A stretch of 64,000 bases of DNA, from positions 16,595-80,594 of the forward strand of contig CAZNMD010000002.1 in assembly GCA_964574355.1 (NCBI GenBank), in the 5' to 3' direction. Below the pieces are notes generated by a model, which saw nothing but the letters and a program-made list of their open reading frames with translations, made no database searches and was not told the origin of the DNA. Source of the stretch: an uncultured Candidatus Saccharibacteria bacterium. GTDB taxonomy: Bacteria > Patescibacteriota > Minisyncoccia > Phycocordibacterales > DSPV01. The translations under genes were made by a program, and so were the position numbers. Below are positions 10,984 to 51,587 of the stretch, piece by piece. The stretch's first letter is position 1, and each line of letters begins with the position of its first letter.

Positions 10984-11350
10984 GCGAATCCTTTTTGTTA
11001 AGGTTGTTTGGGAACAAAATTATCTGGTAAATATAATAACTTAATAAAAGTTATTTGTCAATATCATTTCGATTTTTCAACGTAAAACACGAAGGTGTTT
11101 TGTTCATTTTAACCATCAAAAAATCACCTTTTTTGGGCGATTTTGTTTTGATGCTGTGTGATGTCTATTCGTTTTATTTATAACAAAAAAATTTTAAATA
11201 AGTGGATAACTTAAAATTGTACGTAGTCCTATTTTAAAAAAGTGGGGCACTGTCATACAGGAGTACTCTTTTTGGTGAAGTATGTATTGAATATTTCGTG
11301 CCCGAATCTTTACAGTCATTATCCTTGCATGTTGTGTTGGTGTTATTTAT

Positions 11351-11582: not shown

Positions 11583-12149
11583 ATGCATAACGAATACCAA
11601 GATAAAATTGTTTCTTTTTTCAGACGCAATAAGCGCCTGCCTTCATATCGTGAAGTGATGAAATTACTTGGATTCAAATCGACTAATGCCGTGCACAAGT
11701 TGATGAACAAACTCGTGGACGCTGGTGTGCTTAATCGTGATTCAAGTGGAAAGTTAGCACCTAGTAACATTTTTGGAGAGGTCGCTCTCTTGGGGTCGGT
11801 AAAAGCAGGATTTCCATCACCGGCCGAAGAAGAATTGCAGGATACGATGAGCCTCGATGATTTTTTGATTGAGAAAAAAGAATCAACCTATATGCTGACG
11901 GTAGATGGAGATTCCATGATAGATGCTCATATAGCAGAAGGGGACATGGTTTTGGTTGAACGGACTAATAAAGCGAAAGATGGAGAAATTGTTATTGCCG
12001 AAGTAGATGGAGAGTTTACGATGAAGTATTTCAGGCAGTTAGGTAACAAAGTATGGCTTGAACCGGCAAACAAGAAATATAAACCTATTTACCCGACCGA
12101 AAGTTTAAATATCACTGCCAAAGTCAAAGCAGTTATACGAAAGATTTAA
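11583..12149 (+). CDS. lexA: LexA repressor (winged helix-turn-helix plus S24 peptidase)
   Basis: N-terminal YREVMKLLGFKSTNAVHKLMNKLVDAGVL; C-terminal GDSMIDAHIAEGDMVLVE ... GEIVIAEVDGEFTMKY. Confidence 0.85.
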   Translation: MHNEYQDKIVSFFRRNKRLPSYREVMKLLGFKSTNAVHKLMNKLVDAGVLNRDSSGKLAPSNIFGEVALLGSVKAGFPSPAEEELQDTMSLDDFLIEKKESTYMLTVDGDSMIDAHIAEGDMVLVERTNKAKDGEIVIAEVDGEFTMKYFRQLGNKVWLEPANKKYKPIYPTESLNITAKVKAVIRKI

Positions 12150-12158
12150 GTGAGGTCT

Positions 12159-13466
12159 ATGAAACCATTATCTTTGCGCTCTTTCCCGAGGGCCATACTT
12201 CATATTGATGGTGATTGTTTTTTTGCATCATGTGAAGTTGCTCGCAACCCATCTCTAAAAGGTAAACCCGTCATTACTGGGCGAGAGCGTGGGATCGCTT
12301 CTTCCATGACGTATGAGGCGAAAGCACGAGGAGTAAAACGGGGGATGCAACTTTCCGAAATCAAAAAGATTTGTCCGGACGCTATTATTCTTCCTTCCGA
12401 TTATGAGAGCTATAGTCTGTATTCCAAGCGAATGTTTGAGATAGTGAGACGCTATACTCCTGATGTTGATGAGTACAGCATTGATGAATGTTTTGCTGAC
12501 CTGACTGGTCTTAAGAGGTCTCTTCGGATGTCGTACGAGCAAATGGCTGAGCGTATTAAGTCGGATCTTGATTTGGAATTAGGTATGACTTTTTCAGTTG
12601 GGCTTTCGGTAAACAAGGTCACCGCAAAAATCGCGTCTAAATGGAAAAAGCCTTCAGGCCTAACTATTATTCCCGCTTACAATCTTCACCTCTATCTTGA
12701 AAAGCTTCCCATCGAGAAGATATGGGGTATCGGTCCGAACACAACTGCTTACTTAAATAAATTTGGTATCAGGACTGCACTTCAGTTTGCTGAAAAGAAA
12801 AAAGAGTGGGTGAAGGAGAAAGTTACGAAACCTCATCAAGATATTTGGGAGGAGTTGCGTGGCGGTTTTGTTTATAAGCTAGAGACCGAAGAAAAGCACG
12901 ACTACAAATCTATCGGGAAAACACGAACGTTTACGCCTCCGTCGAAAGACAGGGAATTTGTATTTTCGGAGTTGTCCAAAAATATTGAAAATGCTTGTAT
13001 CAAGTTACGCAGACACGGATTGTATACCAAAGAAATTGTTTTCTTTTTAAAGAGACAGGATTTTAGTCATGCGGGGCTTGAATTGAAACTTTCTGTCCAT
13101 GCTTGTATCCCACAAGCTATTTTGGAAGTGGTCGAGAAACATTTTGATGAGGTGTATGTTCCTAATACCTTATATCGTGCAACTGGCATTGTCTTGATGA
13201 AACTGTCTGCTTCAAATTTAGGGACGATGGATTTGTTTGGAAATTATACTGAAGTTGAGAAGATGACTCGTGTATATGGTTCGGTAGACGAGGTTTCTAG
13301 AAAGTATGGAAAGCATACGTTATTTTTAGGATCAAGTTTTATTGCAATGAAAAACCATCAACACGAAGGAGAGCGGGGAGTTACTGCGGAAAGAAAAAAG
13401 CCTCTCTTGGTGGGAGAGACGGATCGAAAGCATTTAAGGGTGCCTCTGTTAGGGAAGGTTAGGTAG
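12159..13466 (+). CDS. dinB: Y-family DNA polymerase (DinB/UmuC-like, Pol IV)
   Basis: ILHIDGDCFFASCEV ... SIDECFADLTG ... GIGPNT; start overlaps the lexA stop. Confidence 0.8.
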   Translation: MKPLSLRSFPRAILHIDGDCFFASCEVARNPSLKGKPVITGRERGIASSMTYEAKARGVKRGMQLSEIKKICPDAIILPSDYESYSLYSKRMFEIVRRYTPDVDEYSIDECFADLTGLKRSLRMSYEQMAERIKSDLDLELGMTFSVGLSVNKVTAKIASKWKKPSGLTIIPAYNLHLYLEKLPIEKIWGIGPNTTAYLNKFGIRTALQFAEKKKEWVKEKVTKPHQDIWEELRGGFVYKLETEEKHDYKSIGKTRTFTPPSKDREFVFSELSKNIENACIKLRRHGLYTKEIVFFLKRQDFSHAGLELKLSVHACIPQAILEVVEKHFDEVYVPNTLYRATGIVLMKLSASNLGTMDLFGNYTEVEKMTRVYGSVDEVSRKYGKHTLFLGSSFIAMKNHQHEGERGVTAERKKPLLVGETDRKHLRVPLLGKVR

Positions 13467-13528: not shown

Positions 13529-13732
13529 ATGAAAGAAAACTGGTTTAAGATTGCCGTTTTGCTTCTTATCGGAATATTGGTTTACCAGATCTCCGTATTT
13601 CTTAATCAAATGGCGTGGAGCTACTCTTATTCCCAAAGAGGAGAGTGTTTGGAGAGGATTTACGCCAGAGGAAACAGTGACCTATTCGACAGCAAAGCAA
13701 ATTGCTTCGATATCATTGCTCCACTTCAATAA
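13529..13732 (+). CDS. small membrane or secreted protein (67 aa)
   Basis: N-terminal hydrophobic helix IAVLLLIGILVYQISVF; weak ribosome-binding site. Confidence 0.3.
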   Translation: MKENWFKIAVLLLIGILVYQISVFLNQMAWSYSYSQRGECLERIYARGNSDLFDSKANCFDIIAPLQ

Positions 13733-13799
13733 AAAGTTTTTGTGATTGGTGGGATTTCAGTAGAACCTGCTCATAGAAATAATATTTGATTTTTCTGCG

Positions 13800-15245
13800 C
13801 TAGGTTTTATGAGAATCTACGTATTTTGCAGTAGGAACCAGGTACTTTGCAGTGCGAAGGAGTTGGCTTATTTCGGTTTTATAGTTGGGAAAGTAGCTCA
13901 GGGCAACAAGGAAGTAACGTGAAATTTTTTCATCATCAGCATAGGAACTCAGAAACTTACTTTTTATTGAGGCTTTTAGTCCTGGGCTTCCAAATTTACC
14001 CACTAGAATGAAATAGTACCCAATCAACATAAAATTATTGGAGTGATATATTTTTTCTTTATCTATCTCGCTGACATGGGAGTGCAGTTTTTTAGCCTTG
14101 GTTAGAGTACGAAGGATAAGTATCTTTTGATAGACGTAGGAACTATCGTCTAATACAGTAGTCAAAAGCGATTGCACCCTTTTTTTATCTATGAAAACCT
14201 CCAGGTACGAAGTTATTGTGCTAGAAAAAGAGGGGTCGAGTAGTTTCTTTTTAAGAATGGAAGCTAGTGGGATTTCAGATTTTATTTCTTTGAATCTGTT
14301 TATGCAAAAATTCACTAAAGTCTTGTCTAACCCTTTGTTTGCTACAGTCCAAAGCCTTTTGAGTTGAGCGAGTGTGTATTTGTTAGTAGCGTCTAGTTTA
14401 AGGCCGTATTGTATACCTTCCATCTCTTCCGAAAATTGATTTGCAGGGGTTAGGTAGCTCTCAGCACTAAGGACGTGCGTTTTACCAGCGGCCAAATGCA
14501 AATTTAATGGACGCATAAGCTCTGTGAGTTTGGCAATTGCTCTACGGATCTCTTTTTCTTCAAGCGCAAAAACACGGATATCGTCCATGAATCTGTAATA
14601 TGTAAATTTCTCATTTATCATCATCTCGTCTATCTCGTGTAAGTAGACATTTCCTAGAAAGGAAGAAGGGTCAGACCCTTGGGGAATACCTATGCCACTC
14701 GCGTGCCAAGTATTCAATAAGTATCCAAGCTTTGATGTAACGTCCTTTGACACGTTTAGTTGATTTAGAATATCAAGTAATTTTTTTATTTGAATGTGTT
14801 CAAAGTAGGCGCTTATATCTGTCTTTAGTAAAAAACCACTGGGGTGTTTATTAAAAAGTTTCTCTGTTTTTGCATGAAATCTCCTCCAAGCTTCTACGCC
14901 ATTTTCGAAGAAATATTTCTCACTTTTAGTCACTCTGTGAGAGAAAACTATTTCTCGATTCAGTAATGAGGTATCAACTGTCTTGGCGAATTTATTTGTT
15001 AAGAGTTGGTAGTAAACTCGATCAGTGAGACGCATGAAGTGTCCTGGGCGTAAAATGAGACTTGCTTTTGGAATATCTAGAACAATTACTGAACCTGGGG
15101 CAGGAGAATTGTAATTGACTGAGATCAATGACGCAGGGTCATCAAGATAGTCGGCGTAGTCAAATACATCAGGCCAAAAATCATTCTTTATGTCCTGTTT
15201 CAGATACTTTATTGCTGTCCCGATGGCTTTTTTGCTGAATCGCAT
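13800..15245 (-). CDS. reverse transcriptase, standalone, bacterial defence/retron/Abi-like class
   Basis: RT motifs: IPKASLILRPGHFMRLTDRVYYQLL (motifs 1/2), LLKTDISAYFEHI (A), GIPQGSDPSSFLGNVYLHEID (B'), YYRFMDDIRVF (C, unusual FMDD), LHLAAGKTHVL (D/E). Followed by a ~190-aa helical C-terminal domain. No maturase/endonuclease domain and no adjacent effector gene. Confidence 0.85.
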   Translation of the reverse strand: MRFSKKAIGTAIKYLKQDIKNDFWPDVFDYADYLDDPASLISVNYNSPAPGSVIVLDIPKASLILRPGHFMRLTDRVYYQLLTNKFAKTVDTSLLNREIVFSHRVTKSEKYFFENGVEAWRRFHAKTEKLFNKHPSGFLLKTDISAYFEHIQIKKLLDILNQLNVSKDVTSKLGYLLNTWHASGIGIPQGSDPSSFLGNVYLHEIDEMMINEKFTYYRFMDDIRVFALEEKEIRRAIAKLTELMRPLNLHLAAGKTHVLSAESYLTPANQFSEEMEGIQYGLKLDATNKYTLAQLKRLWTVANKGLDKTLVNFCINRFKEIKSEIPLASILKKKLLDPSFSSTITSYLEVFIDKKRVQSLLTTVLDDSSYVYQKILILRTLTKAKKLHSHVSEIDKEKIYHSNNFMLIGYYFILVGKFGSPGLKASIKSKFLSSYADDEKISRYFLVALSYFPNYKTEISQLLRTAKYLVPTAKYVDSHKT

Positions 15246-15510
15246 TGCAGGTAGATTCTGCCGATTAATTTTGGTTTTGGCAACTCTAAAGAGCTAGGAC
15301 ATGCAATTAGTTAAGGTGCTTATAGCAGAGATAGGAGATAGGGCGTGTCCGATTAAATCGTAAAAAGAGTGTTGTAATTTTGTCGCTTCGCATCATGTTC
15401 GGAGTGGGGAACCGCGGAGGACCGCTTTCGGTCACGGATAATCATTCGCCGTCGCGAATGATTTCCTCGACCCCGGCTCGTCTGTTTTTTCTACTGAAAA
15501 AACATGACTC
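15246..15510 (-). ncRNA. candidate structured ncRNA or leader associated with the RT (upstream, same strand)
   Basis: 265 nt with no credible ORF and multiple perfect hairpins: TCATTCGC-gacg-GCGAATGA, TGTTTTTT-cagtag-AAAAAACA, GACCG-cttt-CGGTC. Confidence 0.3.
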
Positions 15511-15514
15511 CGCC

Positions 15515-15566
15515 TTTCGATTCCCCCACGCAAAGCGCGCAGGTGCTTTGCTCATCTCCACCAAAG
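15515..15566 (+). repeat. inverted partial copy of the tmRNA 3' end (T-loop 3' half plus acceptor 3' strand), interrupted by a 25-nt hairpin
   Basis: TTCGATTCCCCC[ACGCAAAGCGCGCAGGTGCTTTGCT]CATCTCCACCA on the + strand, versus the tmRNA 3' end GGGGGTTCGATTCCCCCCATCTCCACCA on the - strand. Confidence 0.7.
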
Positions 15567-15599
15567 AAAAATCGCTCACCTTTCGGCGAGCGGATTTTT
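15567..15599 (-). terminator. rho-independent terminator of ssrA
   Basis: Minus strand: AAAAATCCGCTCGCC-gaaa-GGTGAGCGATTTTTCTTT directly after the CCA end. Confidence 0.7.
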
Positions 15600-15603
15600 C
15601 AAC

Positions 15604-15988
15604 TGGTGGAGATGGGGGGAATCGAACCCCCGTGCAAGATGAAAATCTAGGCGGGTCTACGGCACGTAGTCTGCTTTGTTTACGAGAGTGAAGATAGAAA
15701 GCGGACAAAAGTCTTCATTCTCGGTGTTTCTTTATTTAAAACAATAGCCGAAACGATCTACTGTTCGAACTTGGGATATATCGCCCGCTTTCCTCGTCCA
15801 AGTGCCGAAGAAAGAGACGTCACGTAGGACTAACCGAAGTTAGGCGAACGCGAGAGCAAAACCGTACGGAGACGGAATTGCCTTGGTCACAGAGCTGTTG
15901 CCAGGTGTGTTTTGAAGCGGTTTAACGAGTCACTTCATCTCGGTGCCGCGCGCAAAGAGTGTGCATCCTGTCGATGCCGATCATCCCC
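15604..15988 (-). ncRNA. ssrA: tmRNA (SsrA), standard one-piece form
   Basis: 5' end GGGGATGATCGGCATCGACAGGATGC resembles E. coli GGGGCTGATTCTGGATTCGACGGGAT. 3' tRNA-like end GGGGGTTCGATTCCCCCCATCTCCACCA. Candidate tag frame ...AIPSPYGFALAFA followed by TAA. Confidence 0.85.
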
Positions 15989-19720: not shown

Positions 19721-19780
19721 CATTCATTCGTCTGTTGATAGAACCCTCTTTGGTTCGAACCTGTGAAAGGGTTCGTTGTG

Positions 19781-24989: not shown

Positions 24990-25129
24990 ACCAATAGTAT
25001 AGCGCGGTGTTGAACCAGGGAAAAAGGATATATGGAAAGTTTTAGACTAGAGTAGGTTGATTATTTCTATTGTTTCATGGCTAATACAAGATGGCCATTT
25101 ATACACAAAAAAAGTGTTAAAATTGTTGT

Positions 25130-26086
25130 ATGACCACACAGCAGGTTATTAAGGATATACAAAAGAATTTTGATATAAATTCGATTTTTGCTCATAGAAC
25201 TTTTTTACTTGCTGATAAACGAAACCTCCTTGAAGATATTGCTCGAATCATCTCTGAAAGACCAAAACCATTTGTGAAGTGGGTGGGTGGTAAAAGGCAG
25301 CTTCTTGCCCAATTTCGAAAATTAAATTTATATCCACCAGAATTATTTAATATAAAAACGGGAAGATATTTTGAGCCGTTTGTAGGAGGAGGTGCTGTAT
25401 TTTTTGATTTACTCCCCGAGAAGGGGTTTTTGTCTGATTTAAATAAGGAGCTTGTTACGACATACAATGTTATAAAAAAAGATGTTGCTCGTCTTGTTGA
25501 GTCACTTAGGAAACACAAAGTTAATAAAGAGTATTTTTTAAAAATTCGAGCACAAGATCCATATACGCTAAGTGACTTAGACGTTGCTTCACGTTTTATA
25601 TTTCTCAACAGAACTTGTTTTAATGGGATGTATCGAGTGAACAGTAAGGGTGGATTCAATGTGCCGTATGGTAAGTATGAGAATCCTTTAATTTGTGACG
25701 AAGAAAATCTAATTAAAGTTTCAAAAGCACTTCAAGGAATTGAAATAAAGCATCAGGATTATAAAGAAGTTCTAAAGAAGGCTAAAAAAGGGGATTTTGT
25801 TTATTTCGATCCTCCCTACTATCCAGTAAGTAAAACGGCGTCGTTTACGTCGTATACGGCAGAATCATTTCTTGATAAAGAGCAGGTAGAGCTTCGGGAC
25901 ACCTTTTTGGAATTAAGTAAGCGTGGATGTTTTGTAATGCTTTCAAATTCAGATACACCCTTTATAAATGAGATTTATAAAGGTCATAAGGGGGTATGTA
26001 TTAATAAAGTTGAAGCTGGCCGAGCAATTAATTCAAAAGGGACAGGAAGGGGGAAAATTACTGAAGTGCTTGTAACTAATTATTAA
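25130..26086 (+). CDS. Dam-family N6-adenine DNA methyltransferase (alpha class); probable GATC methyltransferase M1
   Basis: KWVGGKRQLL (motif X/I region), FVGGGAVFFDL, DPPYY motif IV; first gene of the operon that contains a DpnII-like endonuclease. Confidence 0.8.
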   Translation: MTTQQVIKDIQKNFDINSIFAHRTFLLADKRNLLEDIARIISERPKPFVKWVGGKRQLLAQFRKLNLYPPELFNIKTGRYFEPFVGGGAVFFDLLPEKGFLSDLNKELVTTYNVIKKDVARLVESLRKHKVNKEYFLKIRAQDPYTLSDLDVASRFIFLNRTCFNGMYRVNSKGGFNVPYGKYENPLICDEENLIKVSKALQGIEIKHQDYKEVLKKAKKGDFVYFDPPYYPVSKTASFTSYTAESFLDKEQVELRDTFLELSKRGCFVMLSNSDTPFINEIYKGHKGVCINKVEAGRAINSKGTGRGKITEVLVTNY

Positions 26087-26091
26087 AAAAA

Positions 26092-27780
26092 ATGGATCAA
26101 AAAATCAAAGCGCAAGATACAACATTTGGTGAATTTCATAAAACAGCATCAGTTATTTATGCAATACCTTCGCTTCAGCGCCCATATACGTGGGATAAAA
26201 AAGATGTCGAAAGACTATGGGATGATATTCTTGAAAATCCACCTGGTTACTATGTTGGTAGTATTGTAGCTATTGTTGACGGTGGCACAATCAGTAGAGA
26301 CTTGATAATTGATGGTCAACAAAGATTGACATCATTGTCTTTGATCTTGGCCGGACTTAAAAAGTACATTTCTCCCAAAAAATCAGAAGAATTTAGGTCT
26401 ATAGAAGAAGAAATTGATGAAATACTTATTAAGTACGGTAAAAATAGCAATCAGGTTAGACTTGCATTTTCGGATGGTAATTCAGATCAGATGTATCAAT
26501 CAATAGTATTCGGCACATTACTATCTGAGGCTAATTTAACAAAGTTACAAAAACGATTTATAAATAATTATAAGTCTATAGAGGATAGAATAAAAAAATA
26601 TTTTCCTAAGTGTAAAATTAATGAAATTAGAAATTTTGTTGATAAGATAAAAAAACTACAACTTATTTTTATAAAATGCTTAGACAGATCAGCTGCTTTC
26701 AGTCTATTTGAAAGTATTAATGATACAGGTGTCAGTCTTGCTACTACTGATTTATTAAAAAATGCCATTTTTGAAGCGGTCAGTGGAGATAAAGAAAAAT
26801 ATGCCTACGTTGAAGAAAACTGGAAAAAAATGTTCAGAGATTTTTCTGAGGATAGTAAGTACTTAAAGACGTACATAAGACATCATTGGATCGGGACCCA
26901 TTATTATGTCAGCCATGCGAATTTGTTTGATAGTTTCGTTAAGGAATATAAAAACAAAGAATTAGAATATGCGAGGTCTTTGTTTGAACTATCAAATATA
27001 TACTTATCTATTAGAAATGCCCAAACAGAAAGTTTAATTAAACTTCCAAAGAAAAGATTCGAGGTGGCTGAGATAAAAGAAGTGCTAACTTTCTTGAGCT
27101 TTCTTGGGGTTGATCAAGTTTACTCTGTATTGTTATATATTTATCAAAACGGAATTTCTACATTCGTAAAAGATCTAAACAAATTAGTTGCTTTCCAATT
27201 TTTATACAAGTATATACCAGGAAGCCCGAGTGTTCCTGAGAAAAAGTATTTTGCGAATTATTGTGAAGGGCAAATTGATAAACAAAAATTTTTTAGCGGT
27301 TTAACAGGTTTATGTATAGACCAAAAAGAACAGTTTATTAAAAACTTTTTCGACAGAATAAAGTATATTGAAGGGAAAAGTGGTGATATTCAGTTTGTTT
27401 TAGAAAGAGTGGCTTATAAAATGGGTGGGGTAAATAAATTTGCTGAAGCTACAATTGAACATATTGTTCCTCAAGATGATACGGATCCCGTCTTTAAGAA
27501 TTTTAAGTTGGATAATGATGAGGTATATAGACTAATCCATCAAATTGGTAATTTAACGGTTATGGAGAGATCAGAAAATTCTGATAGAAATATATTTAAT
27601 CAAAATCTCGTATTAAAATTTCCTAACTATAAAAAGCACTACGCAAAAATAAATCAGGCTGTTGATAAATATAACTTCTTATCTGATCCGGAGTCGGCTA
27701 TTAAAAAGAGAGGTCAAAATATCGCTAGTCAGGCTTTTGATCTTTTTATGGATACATTGAAAACGGGTAAATGGAAATAA
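26092..27780 (+). CDS. DUF262 / DUF1524 two-domain nuclease (GmrSD-like, type IV restriction-like)
   Basis: N-terminal IPSLQRPYTWDKKDVERLWDDI and DGQQRLTSL (DUF262 hallmarks). C-terminal EHIVPQ ... IGNLTVMERSENSDR (DUF1524 His-Me finger). 6 nt after M1; overlaps the endonuclease start by 10 nt. Confidence 0.75.
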   Translation: MDQKIKAQDTTFGEFHKTASVIYAIPSLQRPYTWDKKDVERLWDDILENPPGYYVGSIVAIVDGGTISRDLIIDGQQRLTSLSLILAGLKKYISPKKSEEFRSIEEEIDEILIKYGKNSNQVRLAFSDGNSDQMYQSIVFGTLLSEANLTKLQKRFINNYKSIEDRIKKYFPKCKINEIRNFVDKIKKLQLIFIKCLDRSAAFSLFESINDTGVSLATTDLLKNAIFEAVSGDKEKYAYVEENWKKMFRDFSEDSKYLKTYIRHHWIGTHYYVSHANLFDSFVKEYKNKELEYARSLFELSNIYLSIRNAQTESLIKLPKKRFEVAEIKEVLTFLSFLGVDQVYSVLLYIYQNGISTFVKDLNKLVAFQFLYKYIPGSPSVPEKKYFANYCEGQIDKQKFFSGLTGLCIDQKEQFIKNFFDRIKYIEGKSGDIQFVLERVAYKMGGVNKFAEATIEHIVPQDDTDPVFKNFKLDNDEVYRLIHQIGNLTVMERSENSDRNIFNQNLVLKFPNYKKHYAKINQAVDKYNFLSDPESAIKKRGQNIASQAFDLFMDTLKTGKWK

Positions 27781-28640
27781 AAATGAAAAAAAATTTTAGT
27801 AACCTAATAAATACATTTAAAAGTTCAATTAAAACTTGGGAGTATTTTATTAATTGGAATAAGGTATTTTCTCATCGTTCAGATTTAGAGATAGTTCTCA
27901 ATAAGTTAAATTATTTACTCGGTAAGGAAAATTTAAAAGAAGAATTTGTAAAATTATATAGCTCAAACCCTGACATAATTAAAGCTCTCCCGGTTTTATT
28001 GGCGGTCCGAGAAAACAGACTCGAGGTGTTTGATAAAGTGAATAAGAGTGTAGAATTCTTTGATTTTTCTGGTAAAGAAAAAGATGCTGCTAAGTATTTT
28101 GAATTTCTAAATAAATCAGGCCTGGCGCAATTGTTTCAAAAAGATGGAATCAAAAATCTTGTTGATTATGTTGTGGGCGTAGAGGTTGGACTTGATAGTA
28201 ATGGACGAAAAAATCGAGGTGGTACTTTAATGGAAGAAATAATCAGTTCCTATCTAACTGACTTTTGCAATAAGAATGGGTATGAATGTCTTGCTCAAGC
28301 TCGACCTGGTGCTATAAAGGCTAAGTGGGGTTTTGATATTAAGATTGATAAATCAGAACGTAGTTTTGATTTTGCGATATATAACGCTAAAAATAAGAAG
28401 TTAAAGTTATTTGAGGCAAATTTTTATAATGGTGGTGGTTCAAAACTAAAAGCTGTTTGCGGTGAGTTTAAAGCTCTTTATGATGAATTAAAATCCCAAG
28501 GTATTGATTTTGTTTGGATCACTGATGGGTTAGGTTGGAATACAACAAAAAGACCTCTCGAAGAAACGTATAATCACAATGAGTATGTATTTAATTTAAA
28601 TATGCTCGAAGGGGGTGTGCTAAATGAATTGGAGTGGTAA
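27771..28640 (+). CDS. type II restriction endonuclease, DpnII/MboI family (GATC)
   Basis: Near-colinear match to my recollection of R.DpnII: NLVDYVVGVEVGLDSNGRKNRGG, FYNGGGSKL, WITDGLGWNTTKRPLEETY...FNLNMLE. 289 aa versus 288 aa. Confidence 0.8.
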   Translation: MEIKMKKNFSNLINTFKSSIKTWEYFINWNKVFSHRSDLEIVLNKLNYLLGKENLKEEFVKLYSSNPDIIKALPVLLAVRENRLEVFDKVNKSVEFFDFSGKEKDAAKYFEFLNKSGLAQLFQKDGIKNLVDYVVGVEVGLDSNGRKNRGGTLMEEIISSYLTDFCNKNGYECLAQARPGAIKAKWGFDIKIDKSERSFDFAIYNAKNKKLKLFEANFYNGGGSKLKAVCGEFKALYDELKSQGIDFVWITDGLGWNTTKRPLEETYNHNEYVFNLNMLEGGVLNELEW

Positions 28641-28646
28641 CAACCC

Positions 28647-29408
28647 ATGGCTATAGAAAAAACTACAGAGTTAACACTACATCCCGAAGAATTTGAACTG
28701 GAATGTACAACCGTCTGGGCGTTTCCTCGCCGTGGTAACTGGGCTACACATACATCAGATTGGAGAGGGAATTGGTCTCCTGAAGTGGCTCGAAATCTCA
28801 TTCTGCGATATTCCAAAGAGGGTGATGTATTGCTTGATTCAATGATTGGTGGTGGCACAACCGCGATTGAGGCGAAAATATTGAATAGAAATATTATTTA
28901 TTCTGATGTAAATCAGGCGGCACTTGAAAGAACAAAAAAAGCTCTCAATTTTAAGGTTGATAATAAGGCGTGGCAAAGAGGGTTTAAGTGGGACTCTCGG
29001 AATCTTTCTAAGATAAAAGATGAGACTATCGACTTTGTACTTACTCATCCTCCATACGTAGATATAATTAAATACAGTGAAGGAAAGCTGGTTGATGATC
29101 TATCGAACATAAGTGATATAGATGTTTTTTGTGGTGAAATGGAAAAAGTTTCGAAAGAGTTTTATCGGGTCCTAAAGCCTGGTAAATTTTGTGCAATTCT
29201 TATGGGAGATACGAGGCGAAAGAAAATGTATCAGCCGCTTGCCTATAAAGTAATGGACCGCTTTCTTAAGGCTGGACTCTTACTCAAAGAAGATATTATA
29301 AAGCGTCAATTCAACTGTAAGGCCACTGGATTCTGGGTAACTAAATCAAAAGAGTCTAATTTCTTACTCATCATGCATGAACACTTGTTCGTGTTTCAGA
29401 AGATATAA
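28647..29408 (+). CDS. second DNA methyltransferase, M2 (N6A/N4C, motif I followed by motif IV)
   Basis: LLDSMIGGGTTAIEA (FxGxG) followed ~70 aa later by THPPY; final gene of the tightly packed four-gene operon. Confidence 0.6.
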   Translation: MAIEKTTELTLHPEEFELECTTVWAFPRRGNWATHTSDWRGNWSPEVARNLILRYSKEGDVLLDSMIGGGTTAIEAKILNRNIIYSDVNQAALERTKKALNFKVDNKAWQRGFKWDSRNLSKIKDETIDFVLTHPPYVDIIKYSEGKLVDDLSNISDIDVFCGEMEKVSKEFYRVLKPGKFCAILMGDTRRKKMYQPLAYKVMDRFLKAGLLLKEDIIKRQFNCKATGFWVTKSKESNFLLIMHEHLFVFQKI

Positions 29409-29544
29409 ATTTAGTTTAGTTTAAAATAAGGTACTACAATTTAAAAAGAGGGTAGGGACCGCGAGTACGCTTTTCGACCCTTACAGGGTCAGTACCCGTT
29501 TCCGATTTGTTCAGTATCAGAATACTTCACAAATAACGGAGAAC

Positions 29545-29595
29545 GGCTTCGAATCCCACCACGCGACTGAAGCAGTTCAGTCGCTCTCTCCGCAT
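29545..29595 (+). repeat. inverted partial copy of the tRNA-Ser 3' end, interrupted by a 24-nt hairpin
   Basis: GGCTTCGAATCCCACC[ACGCGACTGAAGCAGTTCAGTCGC]TCTCTCCGCAT, versus the reverse complement of the tRNA-Ser 3' end GGGTTCGAATCCCACCCTCTCCGCA. Confidence 0.7.
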
Positions 29596-29627
29596 AAAAA
29601 ATCACCTCGCCAAAGCGAAGGATTTTT
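29596..29627 (-). terminator. terminator of tRNA-Ser
   Basis: AAAAATCACCTCGCC-aaa-GCGAAGGATTTTT; closely similar in form to the ssrA terminator. Confidence 0.6.
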
Positions 29628-29633
29628 CAAATG

Positions 29634-29722
29634 CGGAGAGGGTGGGATTCGAACCCACGGTCCAGTTTAACCCGGACAACACCTTAGCACGGTGCCGCTT
29701 TCGACCGCTCAGCCACCTCTCC
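29634..29722 (-). tRNA. tRNA-Ser with anticodon GCT (type II, long variable arm)
   Basis: GGAGAGG acceptor, D-stem GCT/AGC, anticodon loop GTGCTAA, variable arm GTCC...GGAC, T-arm GTGGG-TTCGAAT-CCCAC, 3' CCTCTCC-G. Confidence 0.8.
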
Positions 29723-51304: not shown

Positions 51305-51322
51305 CTTGTTGCGGGGCCGGGG
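51305..51322 (-). repeat. direct repeat of the tRNA-fMet 3' end, lying 190 bp downstream of the gene
   Basis: CCCGGCCCCGCAACAAG (minus-strand sense) is identical to the 3' end of tRNA-fMet at 51514-51529. Confidence 0.6.
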
Positions 51323-51473
51323 TTGGTCACGAGTTACTAAGCTTTTTGTTTTGCTTTGCTCACAAAAATCTAAGTACTCTCGACCCCACCTCGCTGTCGC
51401 TCCATCGCAACATGCTGCGGCTTGCAATTCCCAACGCGAGCAAAGCAGTTTGCTCGCTGCTCACGCAATATGT

Positions 51474-51508
51474 GAAAAAGTCCCGGCCACAAAGGTCGAG
51501 ACTTTTTC
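51474..51508 (-). terminator. terminator after tRNA-fMet
   Basis: Minus strand: GAAAAAGTCTCGACC-tttgt-GGCCGGGACTTTTTC. Confidence 0.55.
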
Positions 51509-51515
51509 TACATTG

Positions 51516-51587
51516 TTGCGGGGCCGGGAATTGCACCCGGGCCTCCAGGTTATGAGCCTGACGAGGTACTACTCCTCCACCCCGCGA
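51516..51587 (-). tRNA. initiator tRNA-fMet (anticodon CAT)
   Basis: CGCGGGGTGGAGGAGTAGTACCTCGTCAGGCTCATAACCTGGAGGCCCGGGTGCAATTCCCGGCCCCGCAA. C1:A72 mismatch; aligns along its whole length with E. coli tRNA-fMet. Confidence 0.8.

Follow-up and report, generated by a model that had tools for sequence, protein, structure and literature searches.

What is an inverted copy of the end of a tRNA gene, interrupted by a small hairpin, doing immediately beyond the very gene that it mirrors? The question arises in a 64,000-nucleotide stretch of DNA (hereafter the window) from an uncultured Candidatus Saccharibacteria bacterium (contig CAZNMD010000002.1), where such a copy lies past the 3′ end of a tRNA-Ser(GCT) gene. 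A first-pass annotation, made from the sequence alone, had noticed this copy along with a counterpart beside ssrA, the gene for transfer-messenger RNA (tmRNA), and had argued from their shared grammar for either a generating mechanism or a function. The mirrored copy at tRNA-Ser belongs to a family of small DNA elements, rich in hairpins, that lie past the 3′ ends of tRNA and tmRNA genes. The family is widespread, with an unusually strict layout, and is apparently undescribed: full-text searches of the literature, one of them made with the hairpin sequence, returned no description of such an element.

The tRNA-Ser element and its gene are made up of the following parts, given in window positions:

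29447–29458, + strand: F (AGAGGGTAGGGA), which repeats the + strand at the tRNA end in direct orientation and has decayed
29459–29547, + strand: the conserved body (covariance model match, 110.6 bits)
29548–29560, + strand: S1, the first half of the inverted copy (TTCGAATCCCACC)
29561–29585, + strand: the hairpin insert (ACGCGACTGAAGCAGTTCAGTCGCT)
29586–29595, + strand: S2, the second half of the inverted copy (CTCTCCGCAT)
29596–29632: a two-way intrinsic terminator between the arms, on which the palindrome of tRNA end and inverted copy is centred
29633–29722, − strand: the tRNA-Ser(GCT) gene (ARAGORN and Rfam tRNA)

S1 comprises the T-loop (TTCGAAT), the 3′ strand of the T-stem (CCCAC) and the first base of the acceptor, whilst S2 supplies the remainder of the acceptor 3′ strand (CTCTCC), the discriminator G and three bases of the trailer (CAT), with the result that the copy reads GCAT and not GCCA. 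The outer arm of the palindrome is the last ~25 nt of the gene, from T-loop to trailer; the arms are also detected as inverted repeats. The 13-mer of S1 occurs twice in the window, against 0.07 occurrences expected by chance, and the order of S1, insert and S2 confirms that the end of the tRNA-Ser gene has been copied in inverted form and split by a hairpin. The insert measures 25 nt (24 had been reported at first) and consists of AC, a 9-bp stem (GCGACTGAA/TTCAGTCGC) closed by a GCAG loop, and a final T. It sits by the T-stem/acceptor junction, one base inside the acceptor strand, although its exact placement is ambiguous because of the flanking C. The terminator is confirmed in the − strand direction also. 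The body runs, in order, ACC; h1 (GCG-AGTA-CGC, 29461–29470); TTTTCG; h2 (GACCC-TTACA-GGGTC, 29476–29490); AGTAC; and the long hairpin h3 (29496–29546). F, whose partner at the tRNA-Ser end is AGAGGGTGGGA (29637–29647), is read here as the putative original 3′ end of the tRNA gene, since displaced.

Four further copies or relics are present in the window:

15397–15603, + strand: the ssrA-side element, facing the tmRNA gene (15604–15988, − strand); 51 bits, E 1.5e-11
51306–51512, + strand: the tRNA-Met-side element, facing the initiator tRNA-Met gene (51515–51586, − strand)
11049–11160, + strand: a decayed relic of the ssrA type, AT-enriched, with a relic terminator and a possible remnant of a tmRNA 3′ end
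19744–19761, + strand: a tRNA-Ile relic (CCCTCTTTGGTTCGAACC), an inverted copy of the tRNA-Ile 3′ end with no hairpin

The ssrA copy occupies 15516–15563 (TTCGATTCCCCC / ACGCAAAGCGCGCAGGTGCTTTGCT / CATCTCCACCA), with S1 at 15516–15527, the hairpin at 15528–15552, S2 at 15553–15563 and the terminator at 15564–15603. Here the hairpin is placed exactly at the T-stem/acceptor junction, so that the identical junction claimed for the two loci is exact at ssrA but lies one base into the acceptor, and is ambiguous, at tRNA-Ser. When the two inserts are aligned they prove equal in length, flanks and loop; their stems differ, yet each is complementary. The two terminators, said at first to be close in form, do indeed have common flanks (AAAAATC...GGATTTTTCAA). 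A search for the hairpin skeleton brought to light the third copy, at initiator tRNA-Met, where F (TTGTTGCGGGGCCGGG, 51306–51321) repeats 51513–51528 exactly over 16 nt; its hairpin lies at 51434–51458, the split copy has partly diverged and the terminator extends to 51512. A covariance model built from the family alignment and run on the window found the three known copies and, in addition, the relic at 11049–11116 (25.7 bits, E 4e-5, GC content 28%), which can be aligned to 15514–15600. The tRNA-Ile relic is located between tRNA-Ile and the end of recG. The ssrA counterpart is therefore real and the number of instances had been under-counted, by one intact copy and two relics.

All three intact elements in the window face genes on the − strand (ssrA at 15604, tRNA-Ser at 29633, tRNA-Met at 51515), and the five + strand tRNA genes (19647, 52541, 52688, 54931 and 55084) have no element, only the tRNA-Ile relic. 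Since no strand bias is seen at 95 other loci, this orientation pattern probably reflects the intergenic space available. A candidate second relic at about 13680–13775, past the stop codon of a reverse transcriptase gene, bears a weak likeness to a degenerate hairpin, a palindrome and a tmRNA-end remnant; it was dropped, the alignment being too weak and too diverged.

How far does the layout extend beyond this genome? A pattern scan of one genome per species (TTCGAWTCC, 3–5 nt, ACGC, N7, GCAG, N7, GCT) matched at least 120 stretches, where only a handful would be expected by chance, as estimated from the pattern and the size of the database. Among the matches listed, the two N7 runs, which the pattern leaves unconstrained and which form a 7-bp stem core, pair perfectly in 117 of 123; nearly all of the hosts are Patescibacteria (Paceibacteria, Saccharibacteria, Nomurabacteria and others), with a minority of Burkholderiales (Massilia, Duganella, Limnobacter); and for 94 of 131 hairpins the facing gene, 11–62 nt away, is a tRNA or tmRNA gene, many tRNA types being represented. 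Most of the hairpins with no such gene facing them belong to incomplete loci. Variants with different loops or shorter stems also occur and the true family must therefore be wider than the pattern. The motifs of h1 and of the hairpin are common to Patescibacteria and Burkholderiales. The elements are about 80–250 bp in size, most copies contain no open reading frame (ORF), and only a minority of tRNA genes have one. The argument that a shared grammar implies a mechanism or a function is upheld by this recurrence of the layout at 120 or more loci elsewhere, with covarying stems.

On the strand opposite the tRNA, the order throughout the family is F, body, S, a terminator-like hairpin and the working tRNA end. 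F, 12–17 nt in length, is the exact Watson–Crick complement of the 3′ strand of the T-stem, the 3′ strand of the acceptor, the discriminator and a few further bases; it matches the complement of the 3′ strand and not the 5′ strand, reading GGAGATG where the 5′ strand of the tmRNA reads GGGGATG. The body comprises two or three hairpins, the loops and junctions of which are fixed in sequence, and in the tRNA-Ser copy's own subfamily it takes the form ACC; h1 (NNG-AGTA-CNN); TTATCG; h2 (5 bp, TACA loop, 5 bp); AGGTAC; the long hairpin h3; TC. S repeats the gene in inverted orientation, from its T-loop on into the trailer, and the conserved 25-nt hairpin divides it at the T-stem/acceptor junction. 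In most loci the identity of S with the neighbouring gene takes in at least five trailer bases, and it follows that the DNA of the gene, rather than the mature tRNA, was copied. S, the terminator and the tRNA end often make up one long perfect palindrome (26 bp in locus L011, for example).

F and the tRNA end together form a direct repeat of ~15–20 bp, consisting of a 12-nt core, 0–6 nt past the acceptor and 0–5 nt into the T-loop. The repeat of the tRNA end lies about 80–150 nt beyond the inverted copy and is decaying, and outside F the trailer differs from the present one, often with another terminator. Where F and S disagree, the mismatches are of random kinds, and the further a position lies from the body the lower the identity, which is how a relic should look. 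The idea that the two are selected to pair with each other was considered and, given this randomness, rejected.

Do these structures act as RNA or as DNA? Folding of the + strands is much stronger than that of shuffled sequence (z −7.4, −5.8 and −6.0), and in a 16-member alignment analysed with alifold compensatory double changes are found in 27 of the 34 predicted pairs, which means that the structure is under selection. The element stems do not display covariation of the RNA type, in which G.U is tolerated and A.C avoided. Over 61 distinct stems of the hairpin there are 422 Watson–Crick pairs, two G.T and one A.C, and all stems of the alignment together contain seven G.U against six A.C in about 540 cells. 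For 169 tRNAs of these loci, taken as a control, acceptor and T stems together give 4.4–4.7% G.U and 0.3–0.6% A.C (92 against 8). The stems of the element are thus Watson–Crick only and strand-symmetric, unlike the tRNA stems beside them, and from these substitution statistics we infer that DNA is the form in which the structure works, whether as single-stranded hairpins or a cruciform. The suggestion that the copy forms a 3′-trailer duplex used in processing becomes unlikely, both because the stem statistics are DNA-like and because the two convergent transcripts should stop at the central terminator, so that the outer arms of the palindrome should never share one RNA.

Two tRNA-Gln elements (L045, 847–996, and L061, 139–288) differ at three of 150 positions only; two of the three differences constitute a compensatory pair in h1 (GTG/CAC in one, GCG/CGC in the other).

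The loci also carry signs of insertion. Units occur in tandem, two in L108, two in L048 and three in L088, and elsewhere copies bracket genes: the order is copy, 3.4 kb of genes, copy, tRNA-Glu in L060 and copy, degenerate tRNA-Glu remnant, genes, copy, tRNA-Glu in L054. In the window, the relic at 11049–11160 and the intact ssrA element bracket an island at 11.2–15.4 kb, the relic being its outer boundary. In a close relative (L171, with an SmpB in the same 90%-identity cluster) the end of ssrA instead abuts the gene for a large serine recombinase, from which it follows that the ssrA flank turns over quickly. The arrangement in L171 (3687–4082 and 4429–6063) suggests an integrated element using ssrA; the 3′ end of the recombinase gene overlaps the 3′ end of the tmRNA, and a GIY-YIG ORF and hairpin repeats lie between smpB and ssrA.

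The three units in L088, from a betaproteobacterium, are near-identical (~178 nt each, about 760–1260, − strand) and end at a truncated tRNA-Ser 3′ end. A predicted viral contig (L124) is similar, with a truncated tRNA-Ser beside an element, and is possibly a prophage edge. A phage-borne attP was considered and rejected, this single viral-contig match being a probable prophage edge in a truncated tRNA-Ser.

CTX phage at dif and integron cassettes at attI leave behind a direct repeat, the element, an inverted copy, a short loop and a second direct repeat. The layout described here is the same as that left by integration through a folded, single-stranded attachment site, and we therefore favour, tentatively, the view that the family represents a miniature integrative element that encodes no protein, is specific for tRNA 3′ ends, attaches through a site of folded DNA and depends on an enzyme acting in trans. 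S would pair with the tRNA-end core in single-stranded or extruded DNA, rebuilding the target duplex with a bulged hairpin as the folded attachment site, and a recombinase supplied in trans would exchange strands near the T-loop. The element would then provide the gene with a new end, trailer and terminator; the old tRNA end would be pushed outward to become F and decay; and repeated insertion would give rise to tandem units. Of the three suggestions made in the first-pass annotation, a variant attachment site of a recombinase is the best fit (direct repeat, different trailer, tandem units, bracketed cargo), although no recombinase was found in the cargos or among 150 neighbouring ORFs.

This absence heads a list of points that weigh against a mobile element. 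Neither a recombinase nor a transposase is found in the cargos or among the top families of the 150 neighbouring ORFs, which are mostly of housekeeping type (ClpB, RuvA and the CCA-adding enzyme, for example); the scan of window ORFs near the three copies, which took in the 20 largest, found none either. No occupied/empty site pair was found: relatives of the YibE/F gene, used as one test for an empty site, do not keep synteny with tRNA-Ser in 46 loci, and a reconstructed junction compared with all fetched loci gave self and tandem matches only. Copies at different tRNA genes of one genome have diverged, so that nothing shows recent movement, and replication-strand bias is absent (47 against 48 of 95 loci, by GC skew). 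The compensatory pair in h1 that separates L045 from L061 suggests selection acting in place and, taken with the body, which appears better conserved than F in the same copies, could point to a host function exercised in place. Integration leaves unexplained how S and F come to match each different tRNA. Lastly, in the cargo-bearing cases the outer tRNA remnant seems to extend past the F-type repeat, a misfit with a single simple integration.

It is possible, if doubtful, that Patescibacteria and some Burkholderiales share a distributed cassette system resembling integrons and anchored at tRNA and tmRNA 3′ ends, and that the elements serve as its recombination sites. Cassettes would be either empty or gene-bearing (such as the block of LexA-like, polymerase and reverse transcriptase genes at ssrA), and each would terminate in a site of folded DNA, both arms of which are copied from the target tRNA end and pair as it does. 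DNA–DNA matching on either side of a hairpin bound by protein would select the target, and a putative recombinase acting in trans would drive the system.

We consider it unlikely that the element is a resident, non-mobile DNA module serving the host at the ends of tRNA genes. As a cruciform or hairpin, a module of this kind could, for example, insulate or end convergent transcription, or it could spare the gene from damage by integrating islands, either as a landing pad or as a decoy copy of the attachment site at the tRNA end. Such a module would account for compensatory change that keeps body and hairpin whilst F decays, for the compensatory pair that separates the near-identical sequences of L045 and L061, and for housekeeping neighbours with no recombinase nearby; islands do abut the elements at ssrA, tRNA-Ser, L054 and L060. 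It leaves unexplained, however, why the direct repeat has an old trailer and terminator beyond it, why units occur in tandem and why Patescibacteria and Burkholderiales have the same motifs; no known protein or process reads a site of this kind, and the element is carried by only a minority of tRNA genes.

A gene for a structured non-coding RNA that mimics the acceptor/T-arm half of the neighbouring tRNA, and that might serve a tRNA-binding enzyme as decoy or substrate or else pair in antisense with the 3′ end of the pre-tRNA, is quite improbable. The folding scores of the + strands and the covariation in 27 of 34 pairs are what such a gene would show, and the element ends at a terminator and has conserved single-stranded motifs. 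The stems, however, are of the wrong kind, with Watson–Crick pairs only and G.U about as frequent as A.C, unlike the tRNA stems of the same loci. A promoter scan found no promoter-like site, and a terminator is frequently located directly upstream of F. Trailer bases are part of the copy, F corresponds to the complement of the 3′ strand and not to the 5′ strand itself, and the outer arms of the palindrome would never lie within one transcript. Nor was any match to an Rfam family obtained, gathering and E-value thresholds giving chance-level matches only.

A functionless by-product of fold-back (strand-switch) synthesis or local inverted duplication, or an assembly artefact, merits very little credence. 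The palindrome of S, terminator and tRNA end is often perfect through non-functional trailer bases, the 26 bp in L011 being a case in point, and this speaks in its favour. Fold-back synthesis, which had been put forward in the first pass, nevertheless explains neither hairpin, body nor F and is largely refuted: the position, length, loop and flanks of the hairpin are conserved, and so is the body, with compensatory changes, in more than 100 independent assemblies from two phyla. Scarcely credible is a non-coding RNA or retroviral-like primer-binding site of the neighbouring UG32-type reverse transcriptase, whose gene (13800–15245) adjoins the ssrA copy, the − strand of which is complementary to the tmRNA 3′ end; this was rejected because homologues of the enzyme (47% and 72% identity) sit in other contexts with neither tRNA nor hairpin (L001–L003), and further because RVT_1 is absent from the top families of the 150 neighbouring ORFs and the tRNA-Ser copy fits the trailer of the gene (GCAT) rather than a mature GCCA end.

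The reverse transcriptase genes and the restriction-modification genes of the window are neighbouring islands, not parts of the element. The 481-amino acid reverse transcriptase (13800–15245, − strand) has its best PADLOC match to RT_UG32 (1.3e-76), followed by UG21. Together with a gene for a LexA/UmuD-like S24 peptidase and, after it, a gene for a Y-family (ImpB/UmuC-type) polymerase (11583–13466, + strand), it shares a single low-GC block between the relic and the ssrA element. Homologues of the reverse transcriptase are mostly from Patescibacteria; one (L002) is found in a type I restriction-modification operon beside a Fic gene.

At the other locus, a four-gene block (25130–29408, + strand) encodes a Dam-type methylase, GmrSD, the DpnII endonuclease and a second N6/N4 methylase. 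GmrSD-type enzymes cut modified DNA, so that an enzyme targeting modified DNA is found here inside a methylating restriction-modification system. The block has a GC content of 29–37%, against 42–45% in its flanks, and ends 39 nt from F, which puts the element at the tRNA-side edge of the island. The first-pass annotation had taken the element to mark the boundary of these genes: it does lie between the block and tRNA-Ser, but it travels with tRNA genes and not with the island. At the left edge (24990–25130) there is neither a second copy nor a tRNA-Ser remnant and, since the neighbours at other loci are mostly housekeeping genes, a link between element and island was rejected.

Genes for tRNA and tmRNA are classic landing sites for mobile DNA. 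To our knowledge, all of the elements so far described that use them bring an integrase of their own and carry no folded copy of the target. The present family would be a protein-less, structure-defined element, or else a host module, at many tRNA genes of Patescibacteria, bacteria with very small genomes in which mobile DNA is poorly known. If the folded-site interpretation is correct, a recombinase that reads a tRNA-end duplex with a bulged hairpin should exist, the hairpin would offer a simple sequence marker of island boundaries in Patescibacteria genomes, and target choice through long DNA–DNA matching would have a natural example. The copies in Burkholderiales (Massilia, Duganella and Limnobacter) open the question to tests in cultivable bacteria.

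How does the element compare with known systems? It could be assigned to none of the families tested. Unlike a miniature inverted-repeat transposable element, it has ends that are not inverted repeats of each other, and its copies are restricted to tRNA and tmRNA ends and have diverged within a genome. The homing guides of type V-K CRISPR-associated transposons likewise place a copy of a tRNA 3′ end inside the element, tens of bp downstream and in fixed orientation. The present element differs in being tiny, in having no CRISPR repeat and in its DNA-like substitution statistics; cas12k, Cascade, tnsB, tnsC and tniQ were not seen in the window ORFs near the copies or among the neighbours.

The ends of IS200/IS605 elements, their protein-less derivatives and the REP/REPIN–RAYT systems are also small, protein-less, intergenic hairpin elements. 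They are recognised as single-stranded hairpins, and IS608 chooses its target by pairing with bases at the side of the hairpin. The family described here differs from them in its even distribution between replication strands (47 against 48), in possessing a direct repeat and in the length of the match, 12 nt plus at least 10 nt and specific to each tRNA, as opposed to a motif of 4–5 nt; no Y1 (HUH) transposase is seen among the top families of the 150 neighbouring ORFs, though one may be encoded elsewhere in the genomes. Tyrosine integrases reportedly put islands and prophages into tRNA and tmRNA genes, with sublocations at the T-loop and the 3′ end. As with the present element, a direct repeat of the 3′ segment of the tRNA restores the gene, and tandem or successive insertions are found at one gene. 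The element differs in lacking an integrase, in being about 100-fold smaller, in the internal inverted core split by a hairpin and in a repeat that takes in only 0–5 nt of the T-loop.

With the attC sites of integrons there is more in common. In both, structure rather than sequence is conserved, in an imperfect palindrome with Watson–Crick stems and extra-helical features, and an inverse core and a core stand in inverted orientation; integron arrays likewise run anchor site, cassette, folded site, cassette, folded site, with some cassettes empty. The GTTRRRY/RYYYAAC cores of integrons are lacking, the cores of the element being the tRNA's own sequence and varying from one tRNA to another, there is no attI or Pc, and several conserved hairpins lie inside the element. 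No IntI integrase is found among the 20 window ORFs scanned, the cargos or the top families of the 150 neighbours. The likeness to attC is a resemblance in possible working, not membership. Phages of the CTX type (integrative mobile elements exploiting Xer, IMEX, with XerCD and a folded attP) differ from the element in their target, which is dif rather than many tRNA and tmRNA 3′ ends, and in arms that are XerC/XerD sites; the element is, in addition, only 80–250 bp long and free of genes, its irregularity is a conserved 25-nt hairpin and its single-stranded folding is putative. The integrated layout is nonetheless the same in both, a direct repeat with an inverted arm over a short loop, and both do without a recombinase in cis and have a site rebuilt from two inverted arms with a deliberate irregularity.

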